Origin: Ruminococcus albus 7 = DSM 20455
GTDB taxonomy: Bacteria; Bacillota; Clostridia; Oscillospirales; Ruminococcaceae
Assembly (NCBI RefSeq): GCF_000179635.2
Contig: NC_014833.1
Coordinates: 960,001 to 992,000 of the forward strand
Length of the DNA stretch: 32,000 nt
Direction: 5' to 3'
Notes under the pieces: generated by a model
Told to the model about the DNA's origin: nothing
Database searches by the model: none
What the model saw: only the letters and a program-made list of their open reading frames with translations
Shown: positions 5,102-30,966 of the stretch, one piece after another
Position numbering within the stretch: the first letter of the stretch is position 1
Layout of the letters: each line of letters opens with the position of its first letter
Translations under genes and position numbers: made by a program

Positions 5102-5137
5102 CAAATCTATAGCCAAAAAGGAGTGGATATCGGTTCA

Positions 5138-6830: not shown

Positions 6831-6845
6831 GGTAGGCGATGTAAT

Positions 6846-9013: not shown

Positions 9014-9056
9014 TATATTTGATAAACAAGGTTCCTATGATCGGAGGAGGTCATTA

Positions 9057-10634: not shown

Positions 10635-13600
10635 AGCCAAACAATATCTGTTGGATCTGTTGCCTGCGCATACAGAGATAACTGACGACACAAACCTCAT
10701 AGAAGCAGGACTGGATTCGCTGAGTATCATGAAGCTTAACAGCATCTGGCGCAAAGCAGGTTCAAAAGTATCATTTGCAAAGCTTATCTCTGATCCGTTT
10801 TGGAGTGCCTGGAGAAGCTATCTTAACTTTGAGTCAGATACCTCATCGGCAGATCAGTCTCTACAGTCTGCATCTTCCGAGGTAAATGATCCGTCCGCTC
10901 CGTTTCCTCTTACACAAGTGCAGTATGCATACTGGGCAGGCAGACAAAAACATCAGATCCTTGGGGGATTTGGGTGTCATTGTTATGTCGAACTGGATGG
11001 TACGGATATCGACACGCAGCGTCTGGCAAAGGCATGGTCACTGCTGTTGATGCGGCATCCGATGCTGAGGGTGAGATTTTTAGATGACGGTACCCAGCAG
11101 TATATGTCTGAGCCATACAATAAGGATATTACTATATATGATCTTCGTGATTGTGATCCTGATCAGGCAGAGCAGGAATTGATTTCGATCCGTTCAGGTC
11201 TCAGTCACAGACAGTTCAGGATAGAACTTGGTGAAGTTGCGGGTCTTGGTATAGCACTCCTTCACAATAACAGACATCGTATTTTCTTTGATGTTGATCT
11301 GCTTGTGGCGGATGTGCATTCTTTCCAGATCATTCTGAATGATCTTGGCAGACTATACCGTGAACCGATAAATACCATATCTGACTTTCATTTTGGAACG
11401 TATCTCCGTAAGGAAGCAGAGCAAAATCGAAGTGCATTGGAAAATGACCGCAATTACTGGATGCAGAAGATTGATACTATGCCTCTGGCACCGGTGCTTC
11501 CGCTTGCAAAAGAGCCGTCATCGGTCAAGGATGCCTATTTTACAGCGAGAAAACACAAACTTCCGGAAAAAGTATGGAAGTGCCTTAAAGCTCAGGCATC
11601 GAAGTACGGTGTGACGCCTTCGATGGTATTGCTTTGTGTCTACGGGTTAGGTATAGCTAACTATTCGGAACAGCCTGATTTTCTGATCAATATCCCGACT
11701 TTTAATCGTAATACCGAGATCAGTGGTATCGAGGATGTTGTTGCAGATTTTACAAGACTGAGCTTGCTGCCTTTTCATAAGAAGGATGGTGAGAGTTTTG
11801 CGGAAACTGTCAGAAGAACAGCAGCAGATTTCTATGAGATCATGGAACATCCCGCATACTCAGGTGTAGAGATAATTCGAGAACTGAATAGGAAATACGG
11901 TCAGGAAATGCCTGTTGCACCTGTAGTATTTGCCTGCAATATTGAAACATCACTTACAGATCATATTGTTGAAACGACCCTTGGAACGTGGAATTATATC
12001 ATCTCTCAGACACCTCAGGTATGGCTCGATTTTCAGATGTATGAGGATCACGGTTCACTGCTGCTGAAATGGGATAGTGTACGTGAATTATTTGATCCGG
12101 AATTCCTGGATCTGATGTTTGCAGATCTGACGGCATTCCTGGAGAAAGCAGCTGAATGCGACTGGAACAGTGAGATACTGTGCAGAAGGCATGATCTGCT
12201 GCAGGTGGACATCCCACAGGATGCAAATATCTACAGCGACTATGAGATACATGAAGGATTTTTTGAAACAGCCGTAAACGATCCCGATCTGCCAGCACTT
12301 ATCAATGCTGTAACAGGTGAGGAACTGTCCTATGGACAGGCAGCAAAAGCGGCTCTCGGTATCGCACACGAACTGCAGGAGCGGGGATTCTGCGGAGAAA
12401 AGATCGCGGTCATGATGCCGCGTGGTATACGTCAGATAATTGCGATACTTGGCATAGTTGCATCAGGAAACTGTTATGTTCCTGTAAATCCGGAATATCC
12501 CCATGATAGGCAGGCGTATATTTTTGAGAAGGCTTCAATACAGTATGCGCTTACGTCAGAGATCTGCAAGGATAATATCAGCGACAAGGTGCAGGCTCTG
12601 ATCACCGATAATATCGAACCTGCCGAAGAGATCGCAGACTGGAAACACTCTTCTCCCGACAGTTCGGCATATATTATTTTTACCTCCGGTTCTACAGGTA
12701 ATCCCAAAGGAGTGGAGATCAGCCATCGCAGTGCTGTAAATACGATCCGTACGATCAATGAACAATATGGTATAGAGAAGAATGACAGGGTACTTGCTGT
12801 TTCGGCAGTGGATTTCGATCTTTCTGTATACGATATCTTCGGGACATTGAGTGCTGGAGCAGGTCTGGTCATACTTGATGATGCACATAAAAAAGATGCA
12901 TTGTTCTGGCATCAGACAGTGACACGCTTTGGTGTTACGTTCTGGAATTCTGTACCTGCTTTTGTGGAAATGCTCTGTATTGTTACCAAAGAGCAGGATC
13001 GTCCTCTGGATAGTCTGCGGCATATTCTTATGTCCGGTGACTGGATAGCTGTTGATCTTCCCGAACGCTTGCAGAAGGTTGCGCCGAATGCGAAAGTAGT
13101 ATCACTTGGCGGAGCAACAGAAGCTGCTATATGGTCGAATTTCTTCGATGTTAAGCTTCCGATCCCTTCAGGCTGGCGGTCTATTCCTTATGGAAGTGCT
13201 CTAAAGTATCAGAAATACCGTGTAGTTGATGAAAAAATGCACGATTGCCCTCCTTATAAAAAGGGAGAATTACTGATCGGCGGCATTGGTCTGGCTATTG
13301 GATATGTAGGAGATGAAAAACTCACAGCAGAACGTTTTATATACGATCAGGGTGAACGCTGGTATAGAACAGGTGACTTTGGACGTTACTGGGCAGACGG
13401 AACTATCGAATTTCTTGGCAGAAATGACGATCAGGTAAAACTTAACGGCTACAGGATCGAACTTGGCGAGATAGAACAGCATCTCAGCCGCTATAAAGGG
13501 ATCCGTGAAGCCAAAGCTGTTGTGATCACCAGAAATGCAGGTCAGAGTCTGACGGTATTTATTTGTCCTGAAAATCCTGATGATACACCCGATGAAGCTG

Positions 13601-16600
13601 AATTACGTTCTTATCTTCAGAAAAAAATACCACATTATATGATACCGAACCGCTTTGTGACCGTATCGGAATTGCCGCTGAACAGGAACGGAAAGGTCGA
13701 TGTCAAGGCTCTGAGATCTATGGAAACAGCGATCGGTGAAGAACGGAAGCTGGAATTGCCTCATCCGGGAATGGAGTCAGAAATTGCAGAGGAATGGATA
13801 GCTATTCTGCAGATCGGAAGGGTGGATAGGAATACGTCGTTCTTTGAACTGGGCGGCGATTCACTGACTGCGACATCTCTTTGTATGCGGCTCAGAAAAA
13901 AGATTGATATTGCTATACCTCTTGAAAAGATGTTTGAGTGGAAAACGATACGTCTTCAAGCGGAAGGGATCGAAAAGATGCAGAAGAGTGCTGCACAGCG
14001 TCCGGAACATCTTCCCAAGGTGGAGCATGAAGAAAAGAAACGTTTTGAGAAATTTGAATTGTCGGATATTCAGACCGCGTACTGGCTCGGGAAAACAGGT
14101 GACTATGCACTAAGCGGCATCAGTACTGTGTTCTATTATGAGCTAGAAACCGGCATATTGGAACCTGACCGCCTGCAGCAGGCACTCAGAAAACTCATTT
14201 ACCGACATGATATGATGCGCACTGTATTGATCAAAGGCGAGGCAATGCAGCAGGTACTGGCAACCGTACCTGAATATACGATACCCGTCACGGATCTGAC
14301 GGTCTCGGGTCAGACACCCGAACAACTCCGTGAGGAGATGTCACATCCTGTTTTTGATGAAAGTGTTTGGCCGCTGTTCAAGATGCATCTGGTCAGAATA
14401 TCTGAAAGTACTATGCGTCTTATGATGTGCTTTAACAATATAATCTACGATGGTTACAGTATTGCTATACTTCTGGATGAGCTGGGAACATTTTACCGTG
14501 AACCTGAACGCCCTGTGACCCGTGAATCTATAACATTCCGCGATTATCTTGAAACGATGCGAAATTGGAAACGCGGTAAGGAATATGAGGCAGACAGAGA
14601 GTACTGGATGCAACGTGCAGAAACTATGCTGCCTGCTCCCGAACTGCCTGTTGTGCAGGGATCCGATAGAATTGCAGGGGAGCGGCTTTCACATATTGAA
14701 GCACGTTTGAGTGCTGCACAGTACGAGCGTTTGCGAAGCAAGGCTGCTGCTCTGGATATTACACCGACAGCTGTGCTGCTGTCTGCTTATGGGGCAGTGC
14801 TGGCAGGCTGGAGCAAAACCAGACATTTTACCCTTAATCTGACCAGATTCAATCGTATTCCGTTCAGTGATGAGATACATCAGGTGGTTGGAGATTTTAC
14901 TTCGCTGGTGCTGGCAGATATTGACTGCAGACCTGAACTTTCCATTACAGAATTTATGCAGGAAACCCAGAAGAAACTGGCAGAAGATCTTTCACATCCC
15001 TATTACAGCGGTGTGGATGTCTTGAGGGAATATGCCAGAAGAAACGAGATAGTCGGCAAGGAAAGTATGCCGATCGTATTTACAAGCGCATTGGGATTTG
15101 CGGGAAAAGTTACCCGTGAACACGCACTTGGACGTCGTGTGTATAATTCCTCGCAGACACCGCAGGTGTGGCTGGATCATCAAGTGATGGATGATGAAAA
15201 TGAACTGATACTATCATGGGATTATGTCGAAAAACTGTTTACGAACGGCATGATCGAAGATATGTTTAATACTTATGTACAACTACTAGAAGAACTTGCA
15301 AAGGATGATGAGATATGGGATAAAAAACGCGATTATCTTCACATTCCTTATATGGAGGAACGTCAGCTTGCAAATTGTACCGATGCACCTGTTTCAGAAC
15401 TGACGTTGTTGGATCTGTTTGCACAGAATCTGCCTGACGGAGAAAAACGTATTGCGATACGTACAACGGATCGGGATCTTACCTACGGTGAAATAGATAA
15501 GATATCATCGTGTATCGCTGAAACACTGATCAACAACGGTGTGAAGCCGAATACACTGGTCGCTGTTGTTATGGACAAGGGCTGGGAACAGATCGCTGCA
15601 GCGGTTGCAGCACATAAAAGCGGTGCTGCCTACTATCCGATAGATATCAACTTCCCGTCCGAACGCATACAGGAACTTTTGGAGATGGGAGAAGTTACAG
15701 TCGTTCTTACGCAGTCGTCTGCCGTACGGAAATGGGATACCACACGGTATCTGACCATTGATGTGGATCTGGCAGACAGCAGCAGTAAGATAGAAGCGAC
15801 GGTACACGTATCACCTGATGATCTTGCCTATGTCATCTGCACATCAGGAACGACAGGAACACCCAAGGGTGTAGAGATCACGCACAGAGGCGCAGTAAAT
15901 ACGATCCTGGACGTAAATCGAAGGTTCAGTATCATCGCTCAGGACAGCACGATCGCTCTTTCAAATCTGAATTTCGATCTTTCAGTGTATGATATTTTTG
16001 GAATGTTTCAGGTCGGTGGAACTATCGTTGTTCCGGATGCCGAAAAAAGAAAAGAACCTAAGCATTGGATACACCTGATCGAAGATCTTGGAGTGACTGT
16101 CTGGAACACTGTTCCGATGTATATGGAGATGCTGGTGACATATGCTGAGAATACAGCTCCGTTTCACTGCGGGCTGCAAAAGGTTCTGCTGAGCGGAGAC
16201 TGGATCGCGCCTACTCTGCCTGACAGAATGCGAAAACTATGGGGTGATATGGATATCATTAGTCTGGGTGGCGCAACAGAAGCATCGATCTGGTCGAATT
16301 ATTATGTAACACATGGAATCTGCGGCGAAATGAGGAGCATCCCTTATGGCAGACCGCTGACGAATCAGAGATTCTATGTTTTGGATGATTGTATGCAGGA
16401 TCGTCCTGTGCTTGTACCCGGAAAGCTGTACATCGGCGGACTTGGACTTGCACGCGGCTATTGGAAACAAGCTGAGAAGACCCGTGAAAAATTTGTTGCC
16501 AATCCTGTGACGGGAGAGCGGCTGTATGATACGGGAGATATGGGACGTTACCTGCCCGGCGGAGAGATAGAATTTCTTGGAAGAAGCGATCATCAGGTAA

Positions 16601-18267
16601 AGATAGGCGGATACCGTATCGAACTAGGAGAGATCGAGAACGTTCTTGAACGTATCGAAGGGATAAGGAATGCTGTTGTGACGGTTGTTGAACAGAACAA
16701 TTCCAGACAGTTAGGCTGTCATCTTATACTGGATGAAAACGGAAAGAGATCCTTAATGCTTCCTGATGAAAACAGTACAACAGTACTTCCTATCAGACAA
16801 GATTTCTTTGAAAAAACGGTCATTCCTAAGGAGGACATCGATCAGATACAGATATTCCATCAGGCGATGGATGCGGTTTCGATGGAGCTCGTTCTTTCTT
16901 TTATCGGAAGAGGAACATTTGATGCGCATAGTATACGTCAGAGCATTGCTCCGGAATATGTACATATGACAGAGCAGTGGTGTGAATATCTCTGTGCTGA
17001 CGGATTGCTGGAACAGCAGGGCGATGGTTACATCTGGAAACAGGATCCGTTTGAATATTATAAAGATCAGGCATCGGGGAACGAACTGCGTAATGATCAG
17101 TATCGTATGTGGCTCGGTGAGATCCGTGAAAGGCTTGAAAAATATCAGACTGCGTACAGCGATGTACTGAAAGGACACAAGGAAGCGATCTCATTCTATC
17201 TTGAAGATGACGGCGGACTGACACCAAAGGTATTCGGAAAATATGCGGTGTATGACGGAAAAGCAGCTTCAGCAGTAAATGAACTTGTGACAGAATGGTG
17301 CAGGGAGGCAAAGCAGCCGCTTCAGATACTCGAACTTGGTACACGAGTACAACCTCTGCTGGAAAAACTGTATCCGTTGGTTGAAACGTATCATGCTGAG
17401 TATACCTACATGGATGAATCAGACACATTCCTGAAGCAGGCAGAAAAGCTCATTACAGAACACGACCATTTGCATCTGCTTGAAAAGGATATTGAACAGA
17501 TCTGTGAGATCGGAGAAAATGATCTGCTTGCCGATGTTATTTTAGCAAACAATACACTTCACAGACGCTGTAATCTTGACAAGGTCATGGATAATGTCAG
17601 CGGATCATTGAAAACAGGCGGAATGCTTATTATGATCGAACAGGTACAGATACGCAGGTTTGTACGGAATGTGATCGGTATCTATGAAACAGAGGAACCG
17701 GATCGTCAGCTTTTCCTGAACGATACGCAGTGGTGCTCTGTACTTGAACGGCATGGGTTCCGTATCGAAGGAATATTGCCTGTCGGTGAGACACATATAA
17801 TATCTGCAAGCTATCAGGGAATCCACAGGCATACTGATGTGGAGAAGCTACGCACACTTGCGGGAACACTTCTGCCGGATTATATGGTACCGCGCTATTA
17901 CAAGGTATTTGAAAACTATCCTGTGAGCAGTAATGGCAAGGTGGATCGCAAGCAGCTGGCTAAACTTCTGGAGGTGATAGAAGAACCGCAGGAGCAGAGA
18001 ATGACAGCCCCTGAGAATGAGACTGAACAGCTTTTGCAGGAGATCTGGAAAAAGTGTCTGGATCAGGAGAATATAAGTACAGAGGACACTTTCTTTATGC
18101 TTGGCGGTGATTCGCTAAAAGCGATCCGGTGCATCAACGAGATACAGAAGCAATTCAGCATTACCCTGAGTCTCAAGCAGATTTTTCAGAACCAGACTAT
18201 CCGTGCACTGGCAGCCATTATCGATAAGCAGCGTGATGATGGCAATGACGAGATCGGAGAGATCTGA
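10621..18267 (+). CDS. Non-ribosomal peptide synthetase, ArCP-Cy-A(Cys)-T-Cy-A(Cys, MT-like insert)-T
   Basis: 2548 aa. GGAGGA at 10610-10615; 14-nt overlap with the adenylase gene. Domains (approximate nt): ArCP 10621-10830 (LDSLS, Ser codon 10717-10719). Cy1 10900-12170 (FPLTQVQYAYWAGRQ; DLLVADVHS, i.e. DxxxxDxxS, at 11296-11322; SQTPQVWLD). A1 12235-13715 (TSGSTGNPKG 12682-12711; FDLSVYD; NSVP; ILMSGDW; LGGATEAAIWSN; YRTGD; GRNDDQVKLNGYRIELGEIE; NGKVD). T1 13770-13980 (GGDS, Ser 13861-13863). Cy2 14053-15310 (FELSDIQTAYWLGK; NNIIYDGYS at 14434-14460; SQTPQVWLD). A2 15400-17960 (TSGTTGTPKG 15841-15870; FDLSVYD; NTVP; VLLSGDW; LGGATEASIWSN; YDTGD; GRSDHQVKIGGYRIELGEIE; LPDYMVP 17872; NGKVD), with a ~355-aa insert between A8 and A9 (~16740-17840). 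T2 18010-18230 (GGDS, Ser 18112-18114). The hand-extracted 10-residue code of both A domains is DLYNLSLIWK, the Cys code of Cy modules. Confidence 0.9.
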   Translation: MKELEAKQYLLDLLPAHTEITDDTNLIEAGLDSLSIMKLNSIWRKAGSKVSFAKLISDPFWSAWRSYLNFESDTSSADQSLQSASSEVNDPSAPFPLTQVQYAYWAGRQKHQILGGFGCHCYVELDGTDIDTQRLAKAWSLLLMRHPMLRVRFLDDGTQQYMSEPYNKDITIYDLRDCDPDQAEQELISIRSGLSHRQFRIELGEVAGLGIALLHNNRHRIFFDVDLLVADVHSFQIILNDLGRLYREPINTISDFHFGTYLRKEAEQNRSALENDRNYWMQKIDTMPLAPVLPLAKEPSSVKDAYFTARKHKLPEKVWKCLKAQASKYGVTPSMVLLCVYGLGIANYSEQPDFLINIPTFNRNTEISGIEDVVADFTRLSLLPFHKKDGESFAETVRRTAADFYEIMEHPAYSGVEIIRELNRKYGQEMPVAPVVFACNIETSLTDHIVETTLGTWNYIISQTPQVWLDFQMYEDHGSLLLKWDSVRELFDPEFLDLMFADLTAFLEKAAECDWNSEILCRRHDLLQVDIPQDANIYSDYEIHEGFFETAVNDPDLPALINAVTGEELSYGQAAKAALGIAHELQERGFCGEKIAVMMPRGIRQIIAILGIVASGNCYVPVNPEYPHDRQAYIFEKASIQYALTSEICKDNISDKVQALITDNIEPAEEIADWKHSSPDSSAYIIFTSGSTGNPKGVEISHRSAVNTIRTINEQYGIEKNDRVLAVSAVDFDLSVYDIFGTLSAGAGLVILDDAHKKDALFWHQTVTRFGVTFWNSVPAFVEMLCIVTKEQDRPLDSLRHILMSGDWIAVDLPERLQKVAPNAKVVSLGGATEAAIWSNFFDVKLPIPSGWRSIPYGSALKYQKYRVVDEKMHDCPPYKKGELLIGGIGLAIGYVGDEKLTAERFIYDQGERWYRTGDFGRYWADGTIEFLGRNDDQVKLNGYRIELGEIEQHLSRYKGIREAKAVVITRNAGQSLTVFICPENPDDTPDEAELRSYLQKKIPHYMIPNRFVTVSELPLNRNGKVDVKALRSMETAIGEERKLELPHPGMESEIAEEWIAILQIGRVDRNTSFFELGGDSLTATSLCMRLRKKIDIAIPLEKMFEWKTIRLQAEGIEKMQKSAAQRPEHLPKVEHEEKKRFEKFELSDIQTAYWLGKTGDYALSGISTVFYYELETGILEPDRLQQALRKLIYRHDMMRTVLIKGEAMQQVLATVPEYTIPVTDLTVSGQTPEQLREEMSHPVFDESVWPLFKMHLVRISESTMRLMMCFNNIIYDGYSIAILLDELGTFYREPERPVTRESITFRDYLETMRNWKRGKEYEADREYWMQRAETMLPAPELPVVQGSDRIAGERLSHIEARLSAAQYERLRSKAAALDITPTAVLLSAYGAVLAGWSKTRHFTLNLTRFNRIPFSDEIHQVVGDFTSLVLADIDCRPELSITEFMQETQKKLAEDLSHPYYSGVDVLREYARRNEIVGKESMPIVFTSALGFAGKVTREHALGRRVYNSSQTPQVWLDHQVMDDENELILSWDYVEKLFTNGMIEDMFNTYVQLLEELAKDDEIWDKKRDYLHIPYMEERQLANCTDAPVSELTLLDLFAQNLPDGEKRIAIRTTDRDLTYGEIDKISSCIAETLINNGVKPNTLVAVVMDKGWEQIAAAVAAHKSGAAYYPIDINFPSERIQELLEMGEVTVVLTQSSAVRKWDTTRYLTIDVDLADSSSKIEATVHVSPDDLAYVICTSGTTGTPKGVEITHRGAVNTILDVNRRFSIIAQDSTIALSNLNFDLSVYDIFGMFQVGGTIVVPDAEKRKEPKHWIHLIEDLGVTVWNTVPMYMEMLVTYAENTAPFHCGLQKVLLSGDWIAPTLPDRMRKLWGDMDIISLGGATEASIWSNYYVTHGICGEMRSIPYGRPLTNQRFYVLDDCMQDRPVLVPGKLYIGGLGLARGYWKQAEKTREKFVANPVTGERLYDTGDMGRYLPGGEIEFLGRSDHQVKIGGYRIELGEIENVLERIEGIRNAVVTVVEQNNSRQLGCHLILDENGKRSLMLPDENSTTVLPIRQDFFEKTVIPKEDIDQIQIFHQAMDAVSMELVLSFIGRGTFDAHSIRQSIAPEYVHMTEQWCEYLCADGLLEQQGDGYIWKQDPFEYYKDQASGNELRNDQYRMWLGEIRERLEKYQTAYSDVLKGHKEAISFYLEDDGGLTPKVFGKYAVYDGKAASAVNELVTEWCREAKQPLQILELGTRVQPLLEKLYPLVETYHAEYTYMDESDTFLKQAEKLITEHDHLHLLEKDIEQICEIGENDLLADVILANNTLHRRCNLDKVMDNVSGSLKTGGMLIMIEQVQIRRFVRNVIGIYETEEPDRQLFLNDTQWCSVLERHGFRIEGILPVGETHIISASYQGIHRHTDVEKLRTLAGTLLPDYMVPRYYKVFENYPVSSNGKVDRKQLAKLLEVIEEPQEQRMTAPENETEQLLQEIWKKCLDQENISTEDTFFMLGGDSLKAIRCINEIQKQFSITLSLKQIFQNQTIRALAAIIDKQRDDGNDEIGEI

Positions 18268-18299
18268 TTCGATACCGATCATAACCCGACAAAAAATAA

Positions 18300-18340
18300 G
18301 ATGCGCTGCTGTCTTTTGCAGCGCATCAGTTTAAAATTTA
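18300..18340. terminator. Strong GC-rich hairpin between the NRPS and the ECF transporter genes (terminator/attenuator-like)
   Basis: GATGCGCTGC (18300-18309), loop TGTCTTTT, GCAGCGCATC (18318-18327): a perfect 10-bp stem. The plus-strand tail AGTTTAAAATTTAT is only moderately U-rich. The opposite strand has the better tail (TTATTTTTTGT, complement of 18290-18299). Confidence 0.55.
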
Positions 18341-18361
18341 TATTATAAAGGAAGTATTTTT

Positions 18362-18976
18362 ATGAGTATTTCAAAAACAAATCACAGAAAGACAATTGGA
18401 TTCAAGGATGTAGTTACTGTTGTACTGTTTTCAGTACTTACTTTTATTGTCAGCTTAGTGACAGCTATCCCGTTTTCGGGCAGTGTATATGGAATGTTGT
18501 TTGGCGGCTATGCGCTGATGGCACTCATCTGCGGTCCGATCTATCAGATCATGATCAACAAAGCTCCCAGAATAGGTACACAGATCTTGTTCTTTTCAGT
18601 AAAGGCACTGTATATGCTGATCTGTGGTCAGCTGCTGACAGCTGCGGTATTCTTTGTCGGAGGTCTGATCTGTGAGGCGATCTGTCTTGGCGACGGCTAC
18701 AGAAACATGGTAAAAAGTACCGCAGCCTATGCTCTTCACACGACCCTGTACGGCTTTGGTTCATTCTTCCCGGCAATATTCCTGACAGAGTCATACTCAG
18801 CAAGGATGACTGCAGCAGGAGCATCTCCCGAGTCCGTTGCCGCAACTATCGGTGTTTATCATCAGCCGCTGACAATGCTGGGTGTAGCAGTGGTTCTGAT
18901 AGCGTTTTCTATTATTGGCGTATTAATTGGTACAAAGATGTTCCGTAAGCACTTTGCACCTGCTGGCATCGCCTGA
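18362..18976 (+). CDS. Putative ECF transporter substrate-capture (S) component, MptD/Trep_Strep-like polytopic membrane protein
   Basis: 204 aa with ~6 hydrophobic helices (VVTVVLFSVLTFIVSLVTAIPF, YGMLFGGYALMALICGPIY, ILFFSVKALYMLICGQLL, AAVFFVGGLICEAI, LYGFGSFFPAIFL, LGVAVVLIAFSIIGVLIG). AAGGAAG SD upstream. It sits directly upstream of EcfT-like and fused EcfA genes. The family assignment rests on size, topology and gene context, not on a search. Confidence 0.6.
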   Translation: MSISKTNHRKTIGFKDVVTVVLFSVLTFIVSLVTAIPFSGSVYGMLFGGYALMALICGPIYQIMINKAPRIGTQILFFSVKALYMLICGQLLTAAVFFVGGLICEAICLGDGYRNMVKSTAAYALHTTLYGFGSFFPAIFLTESYSARMTAAGASPESVAATIGVYHQPLTMLGVAVVLIAFSIIGVLIGTKMFRKHFAPAGIA

Positions 18977-18979
18977 GTG

Positions 18980-19681
18980 ATGAAAAAAACGGATATTGAT
19001 ACCCGTGTTGCTTTCATTGTTATGGTGGCAGCAGCGTGTCTGATCTTTGCACTTAAAACAGAAGCAGCATTGGTAAGTCTTATGGTGATACTGGTACTCT
19101 GGCTTGTTGTTTCAGGTTATCCGAAGGAGGCGCTGAAAAATGCGGTATTGTTTGCGGTACTATGGGGTCTGGTGTTCCCTCTGAGCCGTAACCCGCATCT
19201 TGGCAGCCTGGCGATGATCTGTATTTATGCCAGAAGAATGCTGCTGCCATTCATGGCGGCAGTGCCAATAAGCCGCGGTTCTACTGGAAAACTGATCGCG
19301 ACACTTTCAAGGATACGTGTACCGCGGATAGTCACGTTGTCGATCTCGATCATGTTCAGGTTTCTGCCTACGATAGGGACAGAGTACCGTCTGATCCGTG
19401 ATTCACAGAAATTCCGCGGCATAGGGACAAATATACTGACAGTGGTCATTCATCCGTACCGCACACTGGAATACATACTGGTACCGTTGCTGATCCGCAC
19501 CAGTAAAGTGGCAGATGAATTATCTGCAGCGGCAATGGTCAGAGGGATGAGCCTGAATGGAACGATGAATCCTTATACAGAAGTCAGATGGAAGAAAACA
19601 GATACGCTCCTGACTCTTTTGTATGGAGCCGCAGTCAGTGGGAGCATCGTTCTTGACAGAACATTACAGGGAGTAGGATAA
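18980..19681 (+). CDS. ECF transporter transmembrane (T) component, EcfT/CbiQ family
   Basis: The track ORF starts at GTG 18977, immediately after the upstream TGA; ATG 18980 is equally possible. It is a polytopic membrane protein with the two short Arg-containing coupling motifs expected of EcfT (…SQKFRGIG… and …AAAMVRGMS…, A-x-x-x-R-G type). Confidence 0.7.
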   Translation: MKKTDIDTRVAFIVMVAAACLIFALKTEAALVSLMVILVLWLVVSGYPKEALKNAVLFAVLWGLVFPLSRNPHLGSLAMICIYARRMLLPFMAAVPISRGSTGKLIATLSRIRVPRIVTLSISIMFRFLPTIGTEYRLIRDSQKFRGIGTNILTVVIHPYRTLEYILVPLLIRTSKVADELSAAAMVRGMSLNGTMNPYTEVRWKKTDTLLTLLYGAAVSGSIVLDRTLQGVG

Positions 19682-19683
19682 GG

Positions 19684-21132
19684 TTGCTGGAATTAAACGA
19701 TATATCTTTTCGGTATGGTCTTGCTGAAGAAGAAAAGGAGAAAGATCTTCAGGATATCGATCTGAAGATCTATGACGGTCAGTTCATAGTGTTTGCAGGA
19801 GAGAGCGGATGCGGAAAGACGACTCTCTCAAGGATAATGAATGGCTTATGCCCCTCATTTTATGAGGGCGATTTGTCAGGAAGCTACTTTATTGACGGAG
19901 AAAATGCAGAAAATAAGACTATTGATCAGATCGGACTTAATATAGGCAGTGTTTTTCAGGACCCGCGAAGTCAGTTTTTTGCTACAAATTCTACGGATGA
20001 GATCGTACTTGCTATGGAGAACCGTGCATACGATCGGGATGTTATGCGTACACGTCTGAAGGAAGTATCACAACGGATGGATATGGGATCTCTGCTCGAT
20101 AAGTGTATGTTCATGATGTCAAGCGGTGAAAAGCAAAAGATAGCCATCGCATCCGTATGCACAGTGAAACCAAAGGTGATCATGCTGGATGAACCGTCTG
20201 CAAATCTTGACCCGGAAGCTATGGAGAATCTTGCAGGGATGCTGGAAGAACTAAAGCAGGAAGGTTATACGATACTGGTACTGGAACACAGACTGTATTA
20301 TCTTCGGAAACTCATGGATAGGCTGATAGTGCTCAGCGGCGGTCGCATAATACGGGATATTGACAGTACAGCGATCGCTAAGCTGACCGGAAAGCAGATG
20401 GAATCACTCGGTCTGCGTGTACTGGAGGAGACAAGACTGCAATATTCACCTCTGGCGGCTGAGGATGACTCACCGTTTGTTGAAATGAAACATATAAGCT
20501 ACAAAGTCAAGCGCAAAGAGATACTGAGTGATATCAATATCCGCGTTCAGAAAGGTGAGATCCTTGCACTGACAGGTCAAAACGGTGCAGGTAAATCCAC
20601 AACCTGCCGCATACTTTCAGGACTTGTTAAGGAGTCAGGCGGTGAAGTATATATCAACGGACAAAAATGCAGTAAAGGAAAGCGGATAAGACACAATTTC
20701 TTTGTGCAGCAGGATTCGGATTATCAGCTGTATGCTTCAACGGTCTACGAGGAGATCACTCTCGGTATCCGTTCAAGGAATATTGACCGTGATGAAGTTA
20801 TCGGGCTGCTGGAACGTCTGCATCTGAGGCAGTATGTAAACAGGCACCCCGGTTCACTGTCCGGAGGACAGAAACAGCGCGTTCTGATCGCAGCTTCCAT
20901 TCTCAAGAAGAAGGAACTTCTGATCCTTGATGAGCCTACCAGCGGATTGGATGGAAAGCATATGCGAGAACTTGCTGTGCTGCTTCGGGATATTGCAGGA
21001 AAGGGGACAACTATACTGCTGATCACGCATGATATGGAATTTATTTCTCTCGTTGCAGACAGCACTGTTGAATTGGCAAACGGCAAGACTTCCGAAAAAC
21101 GGAAGATACTGCGCCGTATTCCACAAGAATAA
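19684..21132 (+). CDS. Fused tandem ECF/ABC ATPase (EcfA-EcfA')
   Basis: 482 aa with a TTG start 2 nt after the EcfT stop. NBD1: Walker A GESGCGKTT, signature MSSGEKQKI, Walker B VIMLDEPSANLD. NBD2: Walker A GQNGAGKST, signature LSGGQKQRV, Walker B LLILDEPTSGLD, H-loop LITHD. Confidence 0.85.
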   Translation: MLELNDISFRYGLAEEEKEKDLQDIDLKIYDGQFIVFAGESGCGKTTLSRIMNGLCPSFYEGDLSGSYFIDGENAENKTIDQIGLNIGSVFQDPRSQFFATNSTDEIVLAMENRAYDRDVMRTRLKEVSQRMDMGSLLDKCMFMMSSGEKQKIAIASVCTVKPKVIMLDEPSANLDPEAMENLAGMLEELKQEGYTILVLEHRLYYLRKLMDRLIVLSGGRIIRDIDSTAIAKLTGKQMESLGLRVLEETRLQYSPLAAEDDSPFVEMKHISYKVKRKEILSDINIRVQKGEILALTGQNGAGKSTTCRILSGLVKESGGEVYINGQKCSKGKRIRHNFFVQQDSDYQLYASTVYEEITLGIRSRNIDRDEVIGLLERLHLRQYVNRHPGSLSGGQKQRVLIAASILKKKELLILDEPTSGLDGKHMRELAVLLRDIAGKGTTILLITHDMEFISLVADSTVELANGKTSEKRKILRRIPQE

Positions 21133-21148: not shown

Positions 21149-21931
21149 ATGTTTCTGCGTCTTAAAAAATTGGATATGAATAAATGGATTAATCACATAG
21201 TAGATCACAAGGAAAGCAGGATAAATTTGTTCTGCTTTCCTCATGCCGGTGCCAGTTCCGCATTTTTTGCAAAATGGGGATCTTATTTTACGGAGCAGAT
21301 CAATCTCCGAACGATCCAGTACCCGATGAGGGATCTGCGATATCAGGAGCCAATGCCCGGATCTATTCAGGAAATGGCACAGAATCTTGCGATGGAAGGC
21401 GCAGAACTTTTCTGTGAACCTTTCGCTTTTCTCGGACATTGTGCAGGCGGGATCATAGCCTATGAAACGGCAGCCGCACTGAAACGTTACTTTAATATTG
21501 AACCTGCATACCTGGTGATATCTTCGGCGATCTCTCCGGGAACAACGCATCTTGTATCTACCGCTGCCATGAGCGATGAAGAATTCTGTCGACACTACAG
21601 TGTGACGGAGGATATGTTCGGCGGGAATGAGGATCTGATGCGATTTTTTCTGCCGATCATGCGTGCCGACTATGAATTGTGTGAGCGTTATGAAAGCGGT
21701 ATAGCAGAACGTCTGGAATGCCCCATATTCGCTGTGTGCGGAGCACAGGATCCACAGATCGAACGTATCGAAGATGTTGAGGATTGGCAGAATTATACTG
21801 ACGGTCCATTTGAACTATGCCTGACAAAAGGAGATCACTTCTATTTTCAGAATGATCCCGGAACTATTTGCAGGAAGATCGAAGAGAAACTGCTTGCCTG
21901 CAATGCAGGATATGAGATCGACGAAATTTAA
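21149..21931 (+). CDS. Type II thioesterase-like alpha/beta hydrolase with a Cys in the nucleophile elbow (GHCAG)
   Basis: Track ORF 21029..21931 overlaps the ATPase gene, so the real start is probably ATG 21149 (AAGGAG at 21131-21136, 12-nt spacing) or ATG 21176. Motifs: LFCFPHAGASSAFFAKW, elbow LGHCAGG (Cys codon TGT 21440-21442 where TEIIs carry Ser), CGAQDP, KGDHFYF (His). Confidence 0.8.
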   Translation: MFLRLKKLDMNKWINHIVDHKESRINLFCFPHAGASSAFFAKWGSYFTEQINLRTIQYPMRDLRYQEPMPGSIQEMAQNLAMEGAELFCEPFAFLGHCAGGIIAYETAAALKRYFNIEPAYLVISSAISPGTTHLVSTAAMSDEEFCRHYSVTEDMFGGNEDLMRFFLPIMRADYELCERYESGIAERLECPIFAVCGAQDPQIERIEDVEDWQNYTDGPFELCLTKGDHFYFQNDPGTICRKIEEKLLACNAGYEIDEI

Positions 21932-21964
21932 GGAATGTCAAACCCAATCGAAAGGAGTTATAGA

Positions 21965-24900
21965 ATGAATCAGCAGGTCGTGCGTGATATGGATATTGCT
22001 GTCATCGGAATGGCTGGACGTTTTCCACATGCTGCGAACATAGAGGAATACTGGAAAAATATCAGCGAGGGAAAGGACTGCATCGATCGTACCGGCGTGA
22101 AGAAAGAAAATTTCGTGGACGCTTACGGACAGCTCGATGATATGTATTTTTTTGATGCAGAATTTTTTGGTGTGAATCACAGTGATGCAGTTTGCATGGA
22201 TCCGCAGTTCCGTATCGTAATGGAATGTGTTTATCACGGTTTGGAGGATGCAGGTTATGCACAGGATACAGGAGATCGTGAGATCGGACTGTTTCTGGGA
22301 GCAGATGAAAACTATTATGTCTGGAATCATTACTATAGCAAGAAGTACAGTGGGCAAACTTTTGACCGTGTATCAATGTTTCTGCAGAATACACTGGCAA
22401 GCAGCATTTCCTATAAGCTGGATCTGCAAGGTCCGTCGATGGTGATGCGTGCTGCTTGTGCCACATCACTTGCTACAGTTCATTACGGCATACAGAGTCT
22501 GCTGAACTATGAATGCAATCTGGTTGTTGCAGGCGGTGTGAATATCCGTGAATATGATGAAGGATACCAGATAGTTGACGGAGTTTCCTCCTCCAGCGGT
22601 GCACTGAGGGCGTATGATGAAAATGGGGACGGTTATGTTCCGGGTAATGGTATGGGAGTTTTGGTAATGAAGCGGGCAGAAGATGCTATCCGCGACGGAG
22701 ATCATATCTACGCACTGCTTAAATCCAGCGCATTGGTCAACGATGGAAGCAGGAAAGCAGGATATCATGCCTCCAGTGTGCAGGGAGAAGCAGAAGCGAT
22801 GGTGAAGGCTCTGGAACTGTCAGGTGTTTCTCCTGAGGACATACAGTATATTGAAGGCCACGGTACAGCAACCCCACTTGGAGATCGTGTGGAGATCCAG
22901 GCGATCGACCGTGCTTATGGATCATTTACAGGAAACTATCAGGTGGAGATCGGTTCAGTGAAATCCAACATAGGGCATCTTAATGTTGCTGCAGGTATCG
23001 CCGGGCTGATAAAAACGATCCTCTGTGTTGAAAAGGGTATGATCCCGCCAACTATCAATTTTGCAAAAGAAAACCCTGAACTTCTGAAATATCAAGGAAA
23101 GATCAGTGTCAGTACATCGCTGCATCCGTGGAAGAAAAACGGAGTCAGACGTGCTGCTGTCAGCTCATTCGGATTTGGCGGATCTGATGCTCATGTTATA
23201 GTAGAACAAGCACCGGAAGTACATAAATCGGCACCACAGGCTATGGATCATTTCTTAGTTCCTGTCAGCGGTATCACGGAAGCAGCTCTTGAACGGAATA
23301 TTGAGCTTCTGAAAGCCTTTATTGCCAAGCATCATGATATGACGGCAGAGATTGCCTATACCTATCAGGTCGGGAAACGGCATTGTAGGTGCCGCAGTTA
23401 CCTGATACTGGATGCACACGGGGAGATCGTCACTGAATCCGTGAACGATATGTTCTTACGTCTGAAATCACTGGGAGAACGTTATGTCGGCGGAGAGGAT
23501 ATTGACTGGAATGCTGAATGGGAACAGAAACCTTCAAGGATACCGACAACCGGATATGCGTTTGAAAGAACGGAATACAAACATCCGGAAACCGAGTTCG
23601 TATCAGCACAGAGAACATCTGTCAAAAAGCGTGTACTGATCCAGGATGGTCTTTCGGACAGCCGATATGCATTAAGTTCGTATATTGCTAAACGTCCGGA
23701 GGTCAAACTCTATCTTGCAGAAAGAGAGGATCGTAACCGTAGTTTTGTGATCGGTGATCCGTCGGAAGTATGGCAGAAAACCTCCCAAAATGCAGAAAGA
23801 TTGTGTGAGGCTTCACAGATCCACCTCATAGGAGCTGATAGTTCGGCAAAACAGGATATGGAACAGTTGTGCCGTTTAGGTGCAGCATATTTTCTTAGTG
23901 TATGCCGTTTTTCAGGATCGCATCTTACTATGCATCAATGGATGGCAGATAATGAATTTCTCACTGAGAATGTGCATTTTCTGAGGTTCATTATCGGACT
24001 GATCAGGGATGCTTCCATTCTGATAACAAAGGATGACAGGCTCACACTACTGAATGCTGAGAAGATGAAGGAGATGGGCGGAGCATTTGATGCAGCTGTC
24101 ATTACATTCTGTAAGGATCATCCTGAATTTGCAGATATTGCAGAACTTCTGGCAGAAAGTGTGCATCACTACATGGAATTTGCACAGGGCAAGAGAAACG
24201 GTAATGATATTCTGCGTCAAGGCGGCAGCATCAACAGTTTACAGAACGTAGGACAGACCGCTACAACAGAAACTGTTTATTGCAAACTTCTGGCACAGAT
24301 CCTGAAGCAGGGCAAACAGAGCGGCAGCGAATTGTCTGTAATGGAGATAGGCGGCGGTACCGGTCAGCTGACAGGAGAGATCGTTAAACAGCTTGGCTCT
24401 GAACAGCTGCGCTACCTGTTCACTGATGTTGGCAAGGGATTCGTGCAGAATCAGAGATTGTCAGCTAAGCAGAATCAATGGGATTTTATGGAGTTCTCGG
24501 TCGTGGATGCAATGGAAGATCTCACAATGCAGGGTATTGCCAAGGACAGTTTGGATGTTATGGTAGAAGATAATATGCTGCATCTGCTAAAGGATCTGCC
24601 TGCTGGACTTAAAAATATCCGTCAGGTACTAAAACCGGGAGGATATCTGGCGGCTGTCCAGGTAATTCTCACTTACGATGTACAGGAATGTGTATTTGGT
24701 ATACTTCCCGGCTGGTGGAATTATAAAGATTCAGTTCCTGCACGTGAACGGCCTTACTTGAGTATAGAGGAATGGAAACGCTGCTTCCGCGAAGCAGGCT
24801 TTGAATTGGTGCTGTCTTTTCCCGAAACCGATGCACCTGAATTGACAAATACGGCGATCTTCCTGTTGCGAAAACCTGAAAATGCTGAAGGAACACTGGA

Positions 24901-25402
24901 TGTGGTCAGAGAGGAACGCCTTGCGTCCCTGCAGAAAAATGCAGGTTCTGCGCAGGTCATGTTCTATAGGAATGAAGATGAACTTGCTCAGATCTGCAAT
25001 AGTCTTTTTGATGCTGAACAGCTTCTTTGCGAAGATACGTGTAAGATAACAGCAGTGGATACTGTACAGAAAAAGAGTGCAGAAACAACGCTTCTGGATG
25101 AATTGAAAACCATCGCTACTGAGATCCTGAATATTGATGATATCGCGGTCGATGAAGATATTATGGACTATGAATTTGATTCACTTTCTGTCCTTATACT
25201 TAATGCTAATATCAAGGAGAAATATCACACAGATATTGGGATAGCTTCTTTGTATGAACTTGGTTCACTTCGTAATATATCGGAATATCTTGAAAACAGG
25301 ATGTCACAGGAAAGTGAAGGCGGCATGGATCATGGAGATCAGTCAGCTGCTGAAGAGGAAAAATACAGTCCTGAGGATCTTCTGGATGAATTGTTTGAAT
25401 GA
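21965..25402 (+). CDS. AT-less polyketide synthase module KS-(linker)-cMT-ACP
   Basis: The track ORF starts at 21935. ATG 21965 has GGAG (21954-21957) 7 nt upstream and is preferred. KS ~21992-23215 (DIAVIGMAGRFP; active-site AACATS with Cys 22457-22459; EGHGTATPLGD; SNIGHLNVAAG). The KS-flanking linker FLVPVSGITEAALERN…AYTYQVGKRH runs directly into the post-AT-type motif IPTTGYAFERTEY (~23540-23580), so no AT is present. Class I methyltransferase ~24150-24870 (VMEIGGGTGQLTG at 24341-24370; DVMVEDNMLHLL; LKPGGYL). ACP ~25075-25300 (EFDSLSV, Ser 25181-25183). No KR/DH/ER recognised. Confidence 0.85.
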   Translation: MNQQVVRDMDIAVIGMAGRFPHAANIEEYWKNISEGKDCIDRTGVKKENFVDAYGQLDDMYFFDAEFFGVNHSDAVCMDPQFRIVMECVYHGLEDAGYAQDTGDREIGLFLGADENYYVWNHYYSKKYSGQTFDRVSMFLQNTLASSISYKLDLQGPSMVMRAACATSLATVHYGIQSLLNYECNLVVAGGVNIREYDEGYQIVDGVSSSSGALRAYDENGDGYVPGNGMGVLVMKRAEDAIRDGDHIYALLKSSALVNDGSRKAGYHASSVQGEAEAMVKALELSGVSPEDIQYIEGHGTATPLGDRVEIQAIDRAYGSFTGNYQVEIGSVKSNIGHLNVAAGIAGLIKTILCVEKGMIPPTINFAKENPELLKYQGKISVSTSLHPWKKNGVRRAAVSSFGFGGSDAHVIVEQAPEVHKSAPQAMDHFLVPVSGITEAALERNIELLKAFIAKHHDMTAEIAYTYQVGKRHCRCRSYLILDAHGEIVTESVNDMFLRLKSLGERYVGGEDIDWNAEWEQKPSRIPTTGYAFERTEYKHPETEFVSAQRTSVKKRVLIQDGLSDSRYALSSYIAKRPEVKLYLAEREDRNRSFVIGDPSEVWQKTSQNAERLCEASQIHLIGADSSAKQDMEQLCRLGAAYFLSVCRFSGSHLTMHQWMADNEFLTENVHFLRFIIGLIRDASILITKDDRLTLLNAEKMKEMGGAFDAAVITFCKDHPEFADIAELLAESVHHYMEFAQGKRNGNDILRQGGSINSLQNVGQTATTETVYCKLLAQILKQGKQSGSELSVMEIGGGTGQLTGEIVKQLGSEQLRYLFTDVGKGFVQNQRLSAKQNQWDFMEFSVVDAMEDLTMQGIAKDSLDVMVEDNMLHLLKDLPAGLKNIRQVLKPGGYLAAVQVILTYDVQECVFGILPGWWNYKDSVPARERPYLSIEEWKRCFREAGFELVLSFPETDAPELTNTAIFLLRKPENAEGTLDVVREERLASLQKNAGSAQVMFYRNEDELAQICNSLFDAEQLLCEDTCKITAVDTVQKKSAETTLLDELKTIATEILNIDDIAVDEDIMDYEFDSLSVLILNANIKEKYHTDIGIASLYELGSLRNISEYLENRMSQESEGGMDHGDQSAAEEEKYSPEDLLDELFE

Positions 25403-25414
25403 GGTAAAGTGATA

Positions 25415-27127
25415 ATGAGCTTTTTGAAAAGAGTGGCGCAGTTAACGCCGGAACAGCAGAGGGTACTCAAGGAAAAGGCTGAAACAGACGGTGCACGGTA
25501 CGGTTTGTATCCGCTTTCTCCGGAACAACGCAATATGTGGTTTATCTATCAGTATCAGAAGCAGGATATTAGCTATGTCAGCCGCTATCAGATCTCATTT
25601 GAGGGGCATTATAGCATTGATATCATTGAGAGATCTTTCCGCTGCCTGTTAAAAAAGCACAAGATCCTGCGTACGGTTTATCCGGTCATAGCCGGTAAGC
25701 CTTTCCAGATGGTTCAGGATGCAGACAGTGTACCACATCGGGTCGTACATCTGTCAGGCAGAGCGGATGAGGATGCAAAGCAAATCGAGTCAGAAGCGAC
25801 AACGGTTTTCGATCTTGCTGCAGAGATCCCGCTTCGTTACACACTGTTTATCAGAAGTGATACATCTGCAATGCTTCTGCTGTCTATACATCATATTGCA
25901 CACGATGGCTGGTCACTGAGTATTCTGCGGGATGAATTATTTTCGGTATACAGAACGCTGGCAGCCGGAGAAATTCCCGAATTGGAGCCTGAACCTTTCA
26001 GCTATCTTGATTATGTGTGCTACACTAATTCAGAAGCGGCAGATTATGCAGAGGAGCGTGCATACTGGAATACTCATTTTGATCCGGAAATCTGTGAGAT
26101 ACCGTTTCAGGAAAGTGGATATCCGGCAGAAAACGGAAATGTCATAAAGCAGCTTAGTTTCCCTATGTATCAGAAGCTTAAAACCTATGCGTCTGAAAAC
26201 AAGCTCACGCTCAGTGAGATATGTTTTACCGCTTTGGGAGAGTTGTTGTGCAAGGGAAGCGGATGCGGGAAGATAAACATCGGGATGCCCGTCCTGAACC
26301 GCGAAAAGAAGTATCTGAACACTGTTGGATATTTCTCAAATACGACCGTATTTCAATATGATCAGCAGCCGGAAACCGATGCCGATGAACTGCTGCGGCG
26401 AGTACATCTCCAGATGGCTGATGTACTTAATGCTTCACGCATACCTCTGGAGGAACTGGTAAAGGACGTTGCTGTTAAACGCACGACCAAAAAACGGCTG
26501 TTCAATGTCATTTATAGTTTTCAGGGAAAGAATTATTACGGCGGTCAGCGTAAGGAACAACTTCCGGATGCACAGGCAGAATTCTGTATTTTCTACAGTG
26601 AACGAAAGGCATCCACCGATTTTGCTATGACTTTTCATGTCATTGAAGAGGAAAACGGTATTCGATTCGGTATAGGATATCAAGGTATCTACATTTCAGG
26701 GGATACAGCAGAAAAAATGTTGGAACAGTATGTTAGTATATTGAGTGCGCTTTTGAAGAATGAACGGCTCTGTGCGGAAGATGTACGTCAGAATGTTCAT
26801 CTGCGCCTTGCTGTTCCGGAACTCAATAAGCATACCGAAACCTCGGAAAATACCGCAACTATGCAGAAAATATACAGAATATGGGTTAAGGTACTGGGTG
26901 AGATCCCTTACGAACCTGAAAAACCGTTCTTTTCGCTGGGCGGAACATCCTTCCAGAGTTTTCAGGTTCTGGAGGAGCTCAATGCAGATTTCGGGATTCA
27001 GCTGTCTATAGCAGATTTCTTTCAATACAGTTCGATCGCTGAACTTGCCAATCTTGTCGATACACGCATCGGAACGACTTCTGACGGTTCTGATGCTTCA
27101 GATGAGATGGAGAGCCTTATGTTCTGA
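25415..27127 (+). CDS. Free-standing NRPS condensation-thiolation (C-T) didomain protein without an A domain
   Basis: The track ORF starts at GTG 25409. ATG 25415 lies 10 nt after GAGG. C domain ~25500-26750 (LSPEQRNMWFIYQ as C1; LRTVY; HHIAHDG at 25889-25909; VGYFSNTTVF as C5). T domain ~26860-27070 (FFSLGGTSFQS, Ser 26948-26950). No adenylation motifs anywhere in the protein. Confidence 0.85.
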   Translation: MSFLKRVAQLTPEQQRVLKEKAETDGARYGLYPLSPEQRNMWFIYQYQKQDISYVSRYQISFEGHYSIDIIERSFRCLLKKHKILRTVYPVIAGKPFQMVQDADSVPHRVVHLSGRADEDAKQIESEATTVFDLAAEIPLRYTLFIRSDTSAMLLLSIHHIAHDGWSLSILRDELFSVYRTLAAGEIPELEPEPFSYLDYVCYTNSEAADYAEERAYWNTHFDPEICEIPFQESGYPAENGNVIKQLSFPMYQKLKTYASENKLTLSEICFTALGELLCKGSGCGKINIGMPVLNREKKYLNTVGYFSNTTVFQYDQQPETDADELLRRVHLQMADVLNASRIPLEELVKDVAVKRTTKKRLFNVIYSFQGKNYYGGQRKEQLPDAQAEFCIFYSERKASTDFAMTFHVIEEENGIRFGIGYQGIYISGDTAEKMLEQYVSILSALLKNERLCAEDVRQNVHLRLAVPELNKHTETSENTATMQKIYRIWVKVLGEIPYEPEKPFFSLGGTSFQSFQVLEELNADFGIQLSIADFFQYSSIAELANLVDTRIGTTSDGSDASDEMESLMF

Positions 27128-30939: not shown

Positions 30940-30966
30940 ACCATTCAAATGATCCGGAGGTATTAC

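Follow-up and report, generated by a model that had tools for sequence, protein, structure and literature searches.

A 32,000-nucleotide stretch of the Ruminococcus albus 7 = DSM 20455 genome (contig NC_014833.1, positions 960,001 to 992,000; called the window here, with its first letter as position 1) carries three adjacent genes for a predicted energy-coupling factor (ECF) transporter in the middle of a line of non-ribosomal peptide synthetase (NRPS) and polyketide synthase (PKS) genes. They encode, in order, an S component, a T component and an ATPase in which two ATP-binding cassette (ABC) domains are fused (AA'):

18362-18976, + strand: ECF S component of the MptD/Trep_Strep family, 204 amino acids (aa) (PF09605, TIGR02185)
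18977-19681, + strand: ECF T component, CbiQ/EcfT, 234 aa (PF02361; FRG and VRG motifs)
19684-21132, + strand: fused A-A' ECF ATPase, 482 aa (two PF00005 domains)

On sequence grounds, the trio is a dedicated group I ECF-type ABC importer module, S-T-AA' of the MptD family, with gaps of 0 and 2 nt between its genes. The initial annotation had placed such a trio at 18362-21132, between an NRPS gene (10621-18267) and a gene for a type II thioesterase (21176-21931), and every part was recovered in that position. Both families that it had proposed were matched above cut-off: the S protein scores 119.3 bits against PF09605 Trep_Strep (cut-off 28.7) and 92 bits against TIGR02185, the MptD model (cut-off 76.45), and the T protein scores 47.2 bits against PF02361 CbiQ (cut-off 25). 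Trep_Strep is the sole Pfam/NCBIfam match of the S protein at E ≤ 0.01; the vitamin-specific S families (BioY, RibU, ThiT, FolT and others), which the annotation had set against its own assignment, gave none at this threshold, and neither the S protein nor any other open reading frame (ORF) of the region matches CbiM, CbiN or NikM at E ≤ 0.01. The Arg-Gly motifs expected of an EcfT/CbiQ-like protein were confirmed by alignment of T with the solved L. brevis EcfT (4HUQ/4HZU, E ~1e-6), in which FRG at residues 146-148 (QKFRGIG) and VRG at 188-190 (AAMVRGMS) fall on both Ala-Arg-Gly coupling motifs. Similarly, the double ATPase is supported by its two PF00005 domains and by TIGR01166 cbiO (242.6 bits, cut-off 211.8), while TIGR04520 ECF_ATPase_1 scores just below its cut-off (312.6 against 315 bits), the protein being a fusion.

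The S protein also resembles its family in size, its 204 aa lying within the ~190-210 aa of hydrophobic MptD/Trep_Strep proteins, and in its C-terminus, TKMFRKHFAPAGIA, where the RKHFAPAG motif fits the basic K-H-F-x-x-A-G of the family; residues K196, H197, F198, A201 and G202 are at least 90% conserved among 40 relatives. Its AlphaFold model, built from a 25-sequence alignment, is an all-helical membrane bundle (pLDDT 90, pTM 0.85). A Foldseek search of the PDB with this model gave nothing significant (none with E < 0.6 among the hits listed, TM ≤ 0.3), helical membrane bundles being hard for Foldseek, and a direct search of the PDB with the S sequence found no solved relative. A profile of the 40 relatives reached one PDB entry, YkoE (5EDL), at a marginal E of 0.0045 over the N-terminal half, in an alignment that covers the conserved G...E of helix 4.

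Gene order provides the strongest evidence for the identity of the S component. We compared the window proteins by tblastn with 100 related loci (numbered L001 onwards), which collapse to 36 lineages at 80% S identity; the locus search used an alignment of 8 closer sequences, the 40-sequence version being too diverse, and sampling is skewed towards gut metagenomes and matches to the peptide patterns of the scan. At nearly every locus long enough to tell, genes for CbiQ and a duplicated ATPase come, in this order, after the Trep_Strep gene, and this obligate synteny is the main ground for reading the first protein as an S component. The scan of genome contigs found nine relatives, all in metagenome-assembled genomes (MAGs) of gut or rumen Clostridia (Oscillospiraceae, Lachnospiraceae, Suipraeoptans, Eubacteriales). 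An identical S gene lies on the 1.4-kb metagenome contig L021, and a MAG contig of 47,978 bp (L001; JAMQYI011500430.1 of GCA_024712465.1), of which 3702-24355 was covered, carries a syntenic cluster, with identities of 82% for S, 70% for T and 69% for AA'.

The relatives also join the ECF genes to a second transporter. The ATPase and two ABC-2 permeases that the initial annotation had reported at 5889-9013 are present in the window:

5889-6830, + strand: ATPase of the ABC-2 system, DrrA-like (PF00005, PF13732; TIGR01188 257 bits)
6846-7988, + strand: ABC-2 permease 1 (PF12698 101 bits, PF01061)
7985-9013, + strand: ABC-2 permease 2 (PF12698 74.7 bits, PF01061)

They had been taken for a separate exporter, a view that the related loci overturn: in all five lineages whose S proteins are 42-56% identical to that of the window (L002; L003/L004; L006; L007; L013-L016 with L022 and L023), S-T-AA' is directly preceded by the ABC-2 trio of one ATPase and two permeases, a conserved operon partner of this ECF clade. 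The ABC-2 proteins of these cassettes are 48-73% identical to those of the window (ATPases 61-73%). Their six genes are separated by a few nucleotides, with no NRPS on the contig and often with a divergent TetR gene. Only in the window and L001 do an aryl ligase and an NRPS (9.3 kb) stand between the ABC-2 and ECF halves. The two transporters appear to go back to a single six-gene unit controlled by a conserved GTTAG-N6-CTAAC operator, with the biosynthetic genes placed inside and around it here.

In more distant relatives (24-45% identity), the ECF genes are paired instead with two fused permease-ATPase proteins (PF00664 and PF00005) of the EqbKL/MptAB type, accompanied by an AraC protein (~330 aa; for example L010 5305-6345) and/or a TetR gene. 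The loci so paired are L005, L008-L010, L017, L024-L030, L033-L037, L041-L042, L048-L054, L057-L063, L086-L090 and L101; L010, L036, L048 and L002 are among the loci that carry two or three cassettes in tandem or additional solitary S genes. Of the 27 lineages whose upstream sequence extends to 4 kb or more, 19 have a second ABC system beside the ECF operon, and the window lineage adds one. An NRPS lies within 10 kb of a Trep_Strep ECF operon in 3/18 well-flanked lineages (window/L001; L057; L051/L069/L088), and a motif of the heterocyclisation (Cy) type was confirmed in all three (window/L001, L057, L088). At L057 (1190-18896), the ECF trio and two fused ABC genes stand between NRPS modules with Cy and adenylation domains, and the S protein is 24% identical to that of the window. 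At L018 (3685-15005), from the cultured Firmicute Paenibacillus sp. OSY-SE, an AraC gene and S-T-AA' lie amid genes for an esterase, Peripla_BP_2 and an EntS-type MFS_3 protein, a classical siderophore context.

The genes of the window (~45% G+C) all lie on the + strand from 5123 to the right edge, and those between 5123 and 30939 overlap or are separated by ~50 nt or less, except for a 94-nt gap upstream of S. This packing sets the ECF module within a metallophore-type NRPS/PKS line, with which it is apparently co-transcribed. The leader of this operon and the gap before S contain the following features:

4843-4871, + strand: candidate promoter of the cluster operon, TTGACA-17-TATAAT, 12/12 (consensus match only)
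4900-4915, no strand assigned: operator-like palindrome, box 1, GTTAGTTAAGTCTAAC, ~30 nt downstream of the -10 hexamer
5086-5101, no strand assigned: operator-like palindrome, box 2, GTTAGTTAATACTAAC, ~20 nt upstream of the ribosome-binding site of the first cluster gene
18300-18327, no strand assigned: G+C-rich hairpin of 10 bp in the 94-nt gap between NRPS and S, the only sizeable one of the operon

The leader holds two copies of TTAGTTAAnnCTAAC (4901 and 5087), with 0.42 expected, and the 16-bp palindrome GTTAG-N6-CTAAC occurs three times in the window against an expectation of 0.02. Across the related loci, it was found 79 times in 1.07 Mb (about one expected, 0-3 in shuffled sequence), almost always between genes and 15-90 nt ahead of an ABC/ECF operon that opens with a gene for an ABC-2 ATPase, a fused ABC protein, an S component or an AraC protein. 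Examples lie at L006 948, L013 6797, L010 6380 and L101 9967, and in the cultured human-gut species Marvinbryantia formatexigens (CP102268.1, with the cassette at about 3,898,091-3,905,574) a box lies 19 nt upstream of S. In ABC-2-type cassettes, the palindrome occupies the spacer between a perfect TTGACA and a TAACNT hexamer resembling a -10 element, which is the position of a repressor operator, and its invariant arms around a variable 6-nt centre fit recognition of DNA by a protein rather than an RNA stem. No box precedes S in the window, while two lie in the operon leader behind the 12/12 promoter, an arrangement that speaks for joint control of the ECF genes and the cluster. The boxes may be bound by TetR proteins encoded next to the operons (for example L006 246-839 and L013 6102-6680) or by a metal-sensing repressor whose gene lies elsewhere; DtxR, Fur, TetR and AraC genes are absent from the 32-kb window, whose sole regulator-like ORF is a gene of the XRE type at 2-841 on the minus strand. 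An earlier assignment of the leader boxes as DtxR/IdeR-like (13-14/19 matches by eye) was dropped, as what is conserved is a 16-bp palindrome whose arms stand 6 nt apart, not a 19-bp IdeR box.

Some copies of the palindrome lie elsewhere. An intragenic one falls on corresponding codons of the first Cy domain in the window (11646-11661) and in L001 (3247-3262), and could reflect either a coding constraint or an internal site. In L013, copies at 12805, 18089 and 18171 (beside genes 12865-14259, 15464-18010 and 18242-19006) precede an enolase gene and, as a pair, a ZIP metal transporter gene, with a MarR gene and an HMA P-type ATPase gene between the enolase and ZIP genes, which hints at a wider metal-related regulon. 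In L098, a corrinoid adenosyltransferase gene (BtuR/CobO; 3525-4085, minus strand) diverges from a Trep_Strep S gene across a copy of the palindrome, in a lineage in which no cobalamin riboswitch was found.

Rfam searches of the window and nine related loci revealed no riboswitch controlling these operons, and so give no clue to a vitamin. A group II intron domain at L092 9644-9713 (~290 nt upstream of the S gene) and a fluoride riboswitch at L029 8821-8898 (~1.1 kb upstream) are probably unrelated neighbours. The hairpin at 18300-18327 (dG -21.5 kcal/mol, z -2.9) scored in a terminator scan on the minus strand only, with an A-run before it and a weak T-run after it, and no minus-strand gene ends there. 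It was rejected as a conserved regulatory RNA, since L001 has a different, non-homologous hairpin in that place.

The remaining genes of the cluster and its left flank are as follows:

5123-5908, + strand: type II thioesterase, first operon gene (PF00975 130.7 bits; ATG at 5140 is the likelier start)
9054-10634, + strand: stand-alone aryl-acid adenylating enzyme of the dihydroxybenzoate (DHB)/salicylate type (TIGR02275 DHB_AMP_lig 533.8 bits; PF00501)
10621-18267, + strand: NRPS, 2548 aa, carrier-Cy-adenylation-peptidyl carrier protein (PCP)-Cy-adenylation (with embedded methyltransferase)-PCP (Pfam domains)
21176-21931, + strand: second type II thioesterase (PF00975 122.7 bits)
21935-25402, + strand: PKS module, ketosynthase (KS)-methyltransferase-acyl carrier protein (ACP); no acyltransferase domain detected in the domain search
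25409-27127, + strand: condensation (HHxxxDG type)-PCP (domains and motif)
27178-30939, + strand: hybrid module, KS-ACP-condensation (domains and motif)
30949-32000, + strand: further NRPS gene, C-terminal part of a condensation domain and start of an adenylation domain, running off the window
2-841, - strand: regulator with XRE-type helix-turn-helix and a long C-terminal domain, running off the left edge
1019-2815: GH26 mannanase with CBM35 (domain match)
2999-4513, - strand: WG-repeat protein (domain match)

The aryl ligase falls short of the equivalog cut-off of its model (723 bits), as expected of a ligase of the salicylate type. The NRPS has two Cy motifs of the DxxxxDxxS type, DLLVADVHS at residue 226 and NNIIYDGYS at residue 1272; in the latter (residues 1272-1280, window 14434-14460), Asn replaces the first Asp, and the L001 orthologue reads DNIIFDGFS. 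The family of the ligase together with the two Cy-type domains points to an aryl-capped heterocyclic NRPS-PKS metallophore with thiazoline/oxazoline rings, of the yersiniabactin/pyochelin/equibactin type, as the predicted product class. A salicylate/DHB synthase gene is absent from the 32-kb window, beyond which the cluster continues. The initial annotation was right that a binding-protein gene is missing: no Peripla_BP_2, FecCD, TonB-type or other binding-protein domain occurs among the ORFs of the window, a statement that holds for these 32 kb because the cluster runs off the right edge. The XRE, GH26-CBM35 mannanase and WG-repeat genes of the left flank fit a fibre-degrading gut anaerobe.

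Transporters of this kind have been described beside metallophore genes before. As in the window, the ECF trio EqbHIJ of the equibactin locus (Streptococcus equi, ICESe2) directly follows the NRPS genes of a yersiniabactin-like cluster, likewise aryl-capped and heterocyclising, and is accompanied by a second ABC transporter and type II thioesterase(s). The eqb cluster differs in that it lacks PKS modules, its partner transporter is the fused permease-ATPase pair EqbKL (YbtPQ-like) and not an ABC-2 trio, and it encodes the DtxR-like EqbA. EqbHIJ is the only case with genetics, being needed for product-dependent iron import. Deletion of eqbH, eqbI and eqbJ reverses the iron-toxicity phenotype of an eqbA mutant (PMC3672683, Heather et al. 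2008); it also lowers 55Fe accumulation, most of which is due to eqbHIJ, with loss of the equibactin-dependent share, and leaves more active product in the medium (PMC3672683). Less 55Fe inside and product building up outside indicate import, not export. In Table S2 of the same work, EqbI appears as a homologue of a 'cobalt transport membrane protein', and the entries imply that EqbJ exceeds 419 aa (PMC3672683); a 2022 genome paper annotates eqbH, eqbI and eqbJ as the S component, T component and duplicated ATPase of a predicted ECF transporter (PMC8754150). Our own searches did not reach this system: no S. equi entry is among the 120 listed of the 1126 family members found in a protein search with a broader alignment, and tblastn of plasmid sequences for EqbH found nothing.

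MptDEF of Mycobacterium avium subsp. paratuberculosis (on LSP14, with MptABC) gave the S family its name and shares with the window an S component, a CbiQ-type permease and an ATPase beside an NRPS cluster and further ABC transporters (fused ones in the mpt locus), as well as the family assignment, the window S protein passing the TIGR02185 model. Its host is an actinobacterium, however, and its NRPS is of the thioester-reductase type. There, mptDEF (with MptE as cobalt-type permease and MptF as ATPase) follow the IrtAB-like mptABC, adjoin the sid NRPS genes and are induced by zinc starvation via Zur (PMC4298942); the function of MptD was described as still unknown (PMC4132290). The initial annotation had linked this family to metal or iron acquisition, and the metal regulation of the mpt locus sustains the first but not the second, as mpt responds to zinc and not to iron. 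A third case is an equibactin-like NRPS cluster of Staphylococcus lugdunensis, likened to the window from a published bioinformatic remark alone: a 2025 survey took its ECF importer as an argument for a nutrient-scavenging product (PMC12709192). With these three precedents (eqbHIJ in 2008; mptDEF beside sid NRPS, PMC4298942; the S. lugdunensis cluster, PMC12709192), the idea of ECF re-import was already in the literature, and the arrangement, which the initial annotation had called uncommon and poorly characterised, is not a new route to metallophore uptake.

Other known transporters resemble the module in part. YkoEDC, the transporter of hydroxymethylpyrimidine (HMP)/thiamine precursors in Bacillus subtilis, likewise belongs to group I and combines a dedicated S component with a T component and an ATPase of two fused domains; the Trep_Strep profile reaches no solved structure other than YkoE, and that one marginally, and YkoE is absent from the Foldseek matches listed. 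Its substrate is, however, a vitamin precursor, and it is controlled by a thiamine pyrophosphate riboswitch. The haem ECF transporter LhaSTA of S. lugdunensis parallels the proposed role in acquiring iron via a metal-organic complex (PMC7299338), although its substrate is host haem instead of a self-made metallophore and its genes lie outside an NRPS cluster. The type II importers with FecCD and Peripla_BP_2, and YbtPQ/IrtAB, perform the task proposed here, and the window holds no hallmark domain of theirs.

Taken together, these comparisons suggest that the ECF module probably imports the metal-loaded product of the cluster, with the S component in the place of the lipoprotein binding protein that classical siderophore importers of Gram-positive bacteria use; substrate, direction and metal are all read from context. 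A dedicated MptD-family module in a metallophore operon keeps re-import of a metal-ligand complex, as first proposed, the best reading, and its strongest support is the eqbHIJ genetics (PMC3672683); what falls away is the novelty. In such a scheme, a repressor would leave the GTTAG boxes and the operon would be switched on; the NRPS-PKS line would then make an aryl-thiazoline ligand, and the ABC-2 system (5889-9013) would secrete the free ligand or re-export it after release of the metal. The MptD-type S component would capture the complex of metal and ligand on the outer side of the membrane and topple against the T scaffold, with AA' as driving ATPase, so that the complex would be delivered to the cytoplasm. 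Toppling is the established mechanism for ECF transporters in general. The candidate metals would be iron, by the link to equibactin, or zinc, by the link to the mpt locus. At loci without biosynthetic genes the importer and 'exporter' pair persists, which suggests both piracy of foreign metallophores and a second transporter that does more than secrete new product.

A bolder form of this proposal is tentative, and we regard it as less likely to hold than to fail: the ECF and ABC 'exporter' genes may be a widespread regulon of gut and rumen Clostridia under GTTAG-N6-CTAAC, not found described in the literature searched, which captures and then recycles or detoxifies thiazoline-type metallophores, including foreign ones, with the MptD-family S component binding the metal-ligand complex directly. 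The window would then be a pathway assembled onto a pre-existing transport operon.

Several points weigh against uptake of the metal-loaded product. To our knowledge, neither binding nor transport has been measured for an S component of the MptD family. The S protein has a confidently predicted model and yet no significant Foldseek match to solved S components, and the hairpin before S could make expression of this gene partly independent of those ahead of it. The likeness of EqbHIJ to the window is one of architecture and published annotation, and equibactin itself was never isolated (PMC3672683). Finally, 15 of the 18 well-flanked lineages have no adjacent NRPS, and TetR/AraC regulators are typical of drug or ligand-responsive transport. 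This distribution would suit a self-contained, ligand-regulated unit of ABC exporter and ECF genes for another scarce or toxic small molecule (a cofactor or xenobiotic), a mere neighbour or hitch-hiker of the pathway: the 15 lineages lack an NRPS within 10 kb and have TetR or AraC regulators adjacent, five lineages (S 42-56% identity) have the six-gene cassette with no NRPS on the contig, and one relative adjoins a corrinoid adenosyltransferase gene. We nonetheless consider it unlikely, because biosynthetic genes here divide the cassette and lie close against its genes, all behind a common promoter/operator region, the link to a heterocyclising NRPS is seen repeatedly, in three of our lineages and at no fewer than three loci from the literature, and no vitamin riboswitch was found in the window or nine related loci; orphan uptake cassettes, for their part, are normal for siderophore piracy.

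The regulators beside these operons raise the further idea that import serves mainly for signalling, a little product being taken in for a cytoplasmic TetR or AraC regulator, much as the AraC-type regulators YbtA and PchR are acted on by imported product. AraC (~330 aa) and TetR genes recur in this position, and the operons are preceded by a common operator, but the window has no TetR/AraC regulator gene, and eqbHIJ accounts for most 55Fe accumulation; we hold a mainly signalling role to be quite improbable, and it is compatible with nutritional import rather than exclusive of it. Import of a biosynthetic precursor such as salicylate or another aryl acid, the option that the initial annotation had left beside re-import, is highly improbable. 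The missing salicylate/DHB synthase gene would speak for it, as would the need of equibactin production for exogenous salicylate (PMC3672683), although the cluster continues past the window and genes for making the precursor may lie there. Evidence against it comes from S. equi, whose eqbHIJ eqbA mutant with 10 uM salicylate still makes, and over-accumulates, active product (Table 2C, PMC3672683), and orphan cassettes occur in apparent non-producers that would have no use for a precursor. Import of a free transition-metal ion of the Co/Ni type, as by CbiMNQO/NikMNQO, is in practice ruled out by the lack of CbiM/NikM-type components: T and A do match the 'cobalt' models PF02361 and TIGR01166, but these names reflect the common energising module only, and the S component is Trep_Strep, with no CbiM, CbiN or NikM at E ≤ 0.01.

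The window is thus a further example, in gut Clostridia, of a known but under-studied kind of system, with an ABC-2 instead of a fused-ABC partner. We know of no biochemical demonstration of metallophore binding by an ECF S component, and of no follow-up to the eqbHIJ genetics in 18 years. What is new is the ABC-2 trio as operon partner of S-T-AA', the fused-ABC pairing in distant relatives and the GTTAG-N6-CTAAC operator; of these, the conserved cassette and its operator are the more interesting lead.

Current detectors of metallophore clusters use markers of chelator biosynthesis or of the TonB/FecCD/Peripla_BP_2 type, not ECF markers, and metallophore clusters were reported in only 0.3% of genomes of the phylum class 'Firmicutes' (PMC12971057). 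A cluster with neither a chelator-biosynthesis gene nor a TonB/FecCD/Peripla_BP_2 transporter in 32 kb is probably missed by both of these routes. The combination of PF09605, CbiQ and a duplicated ATPase as a marker could correct such missed detection in anaerobic gut Firmicutes. Marvinbryantia formatexigens (CP102268.1), which carries the conserved cassette and operator, offers a handle on the regulator, the metal and the ligand. If the tentative regulon reading holds, its ligand would be the first siderophore-type substrate of an ECF transporter.

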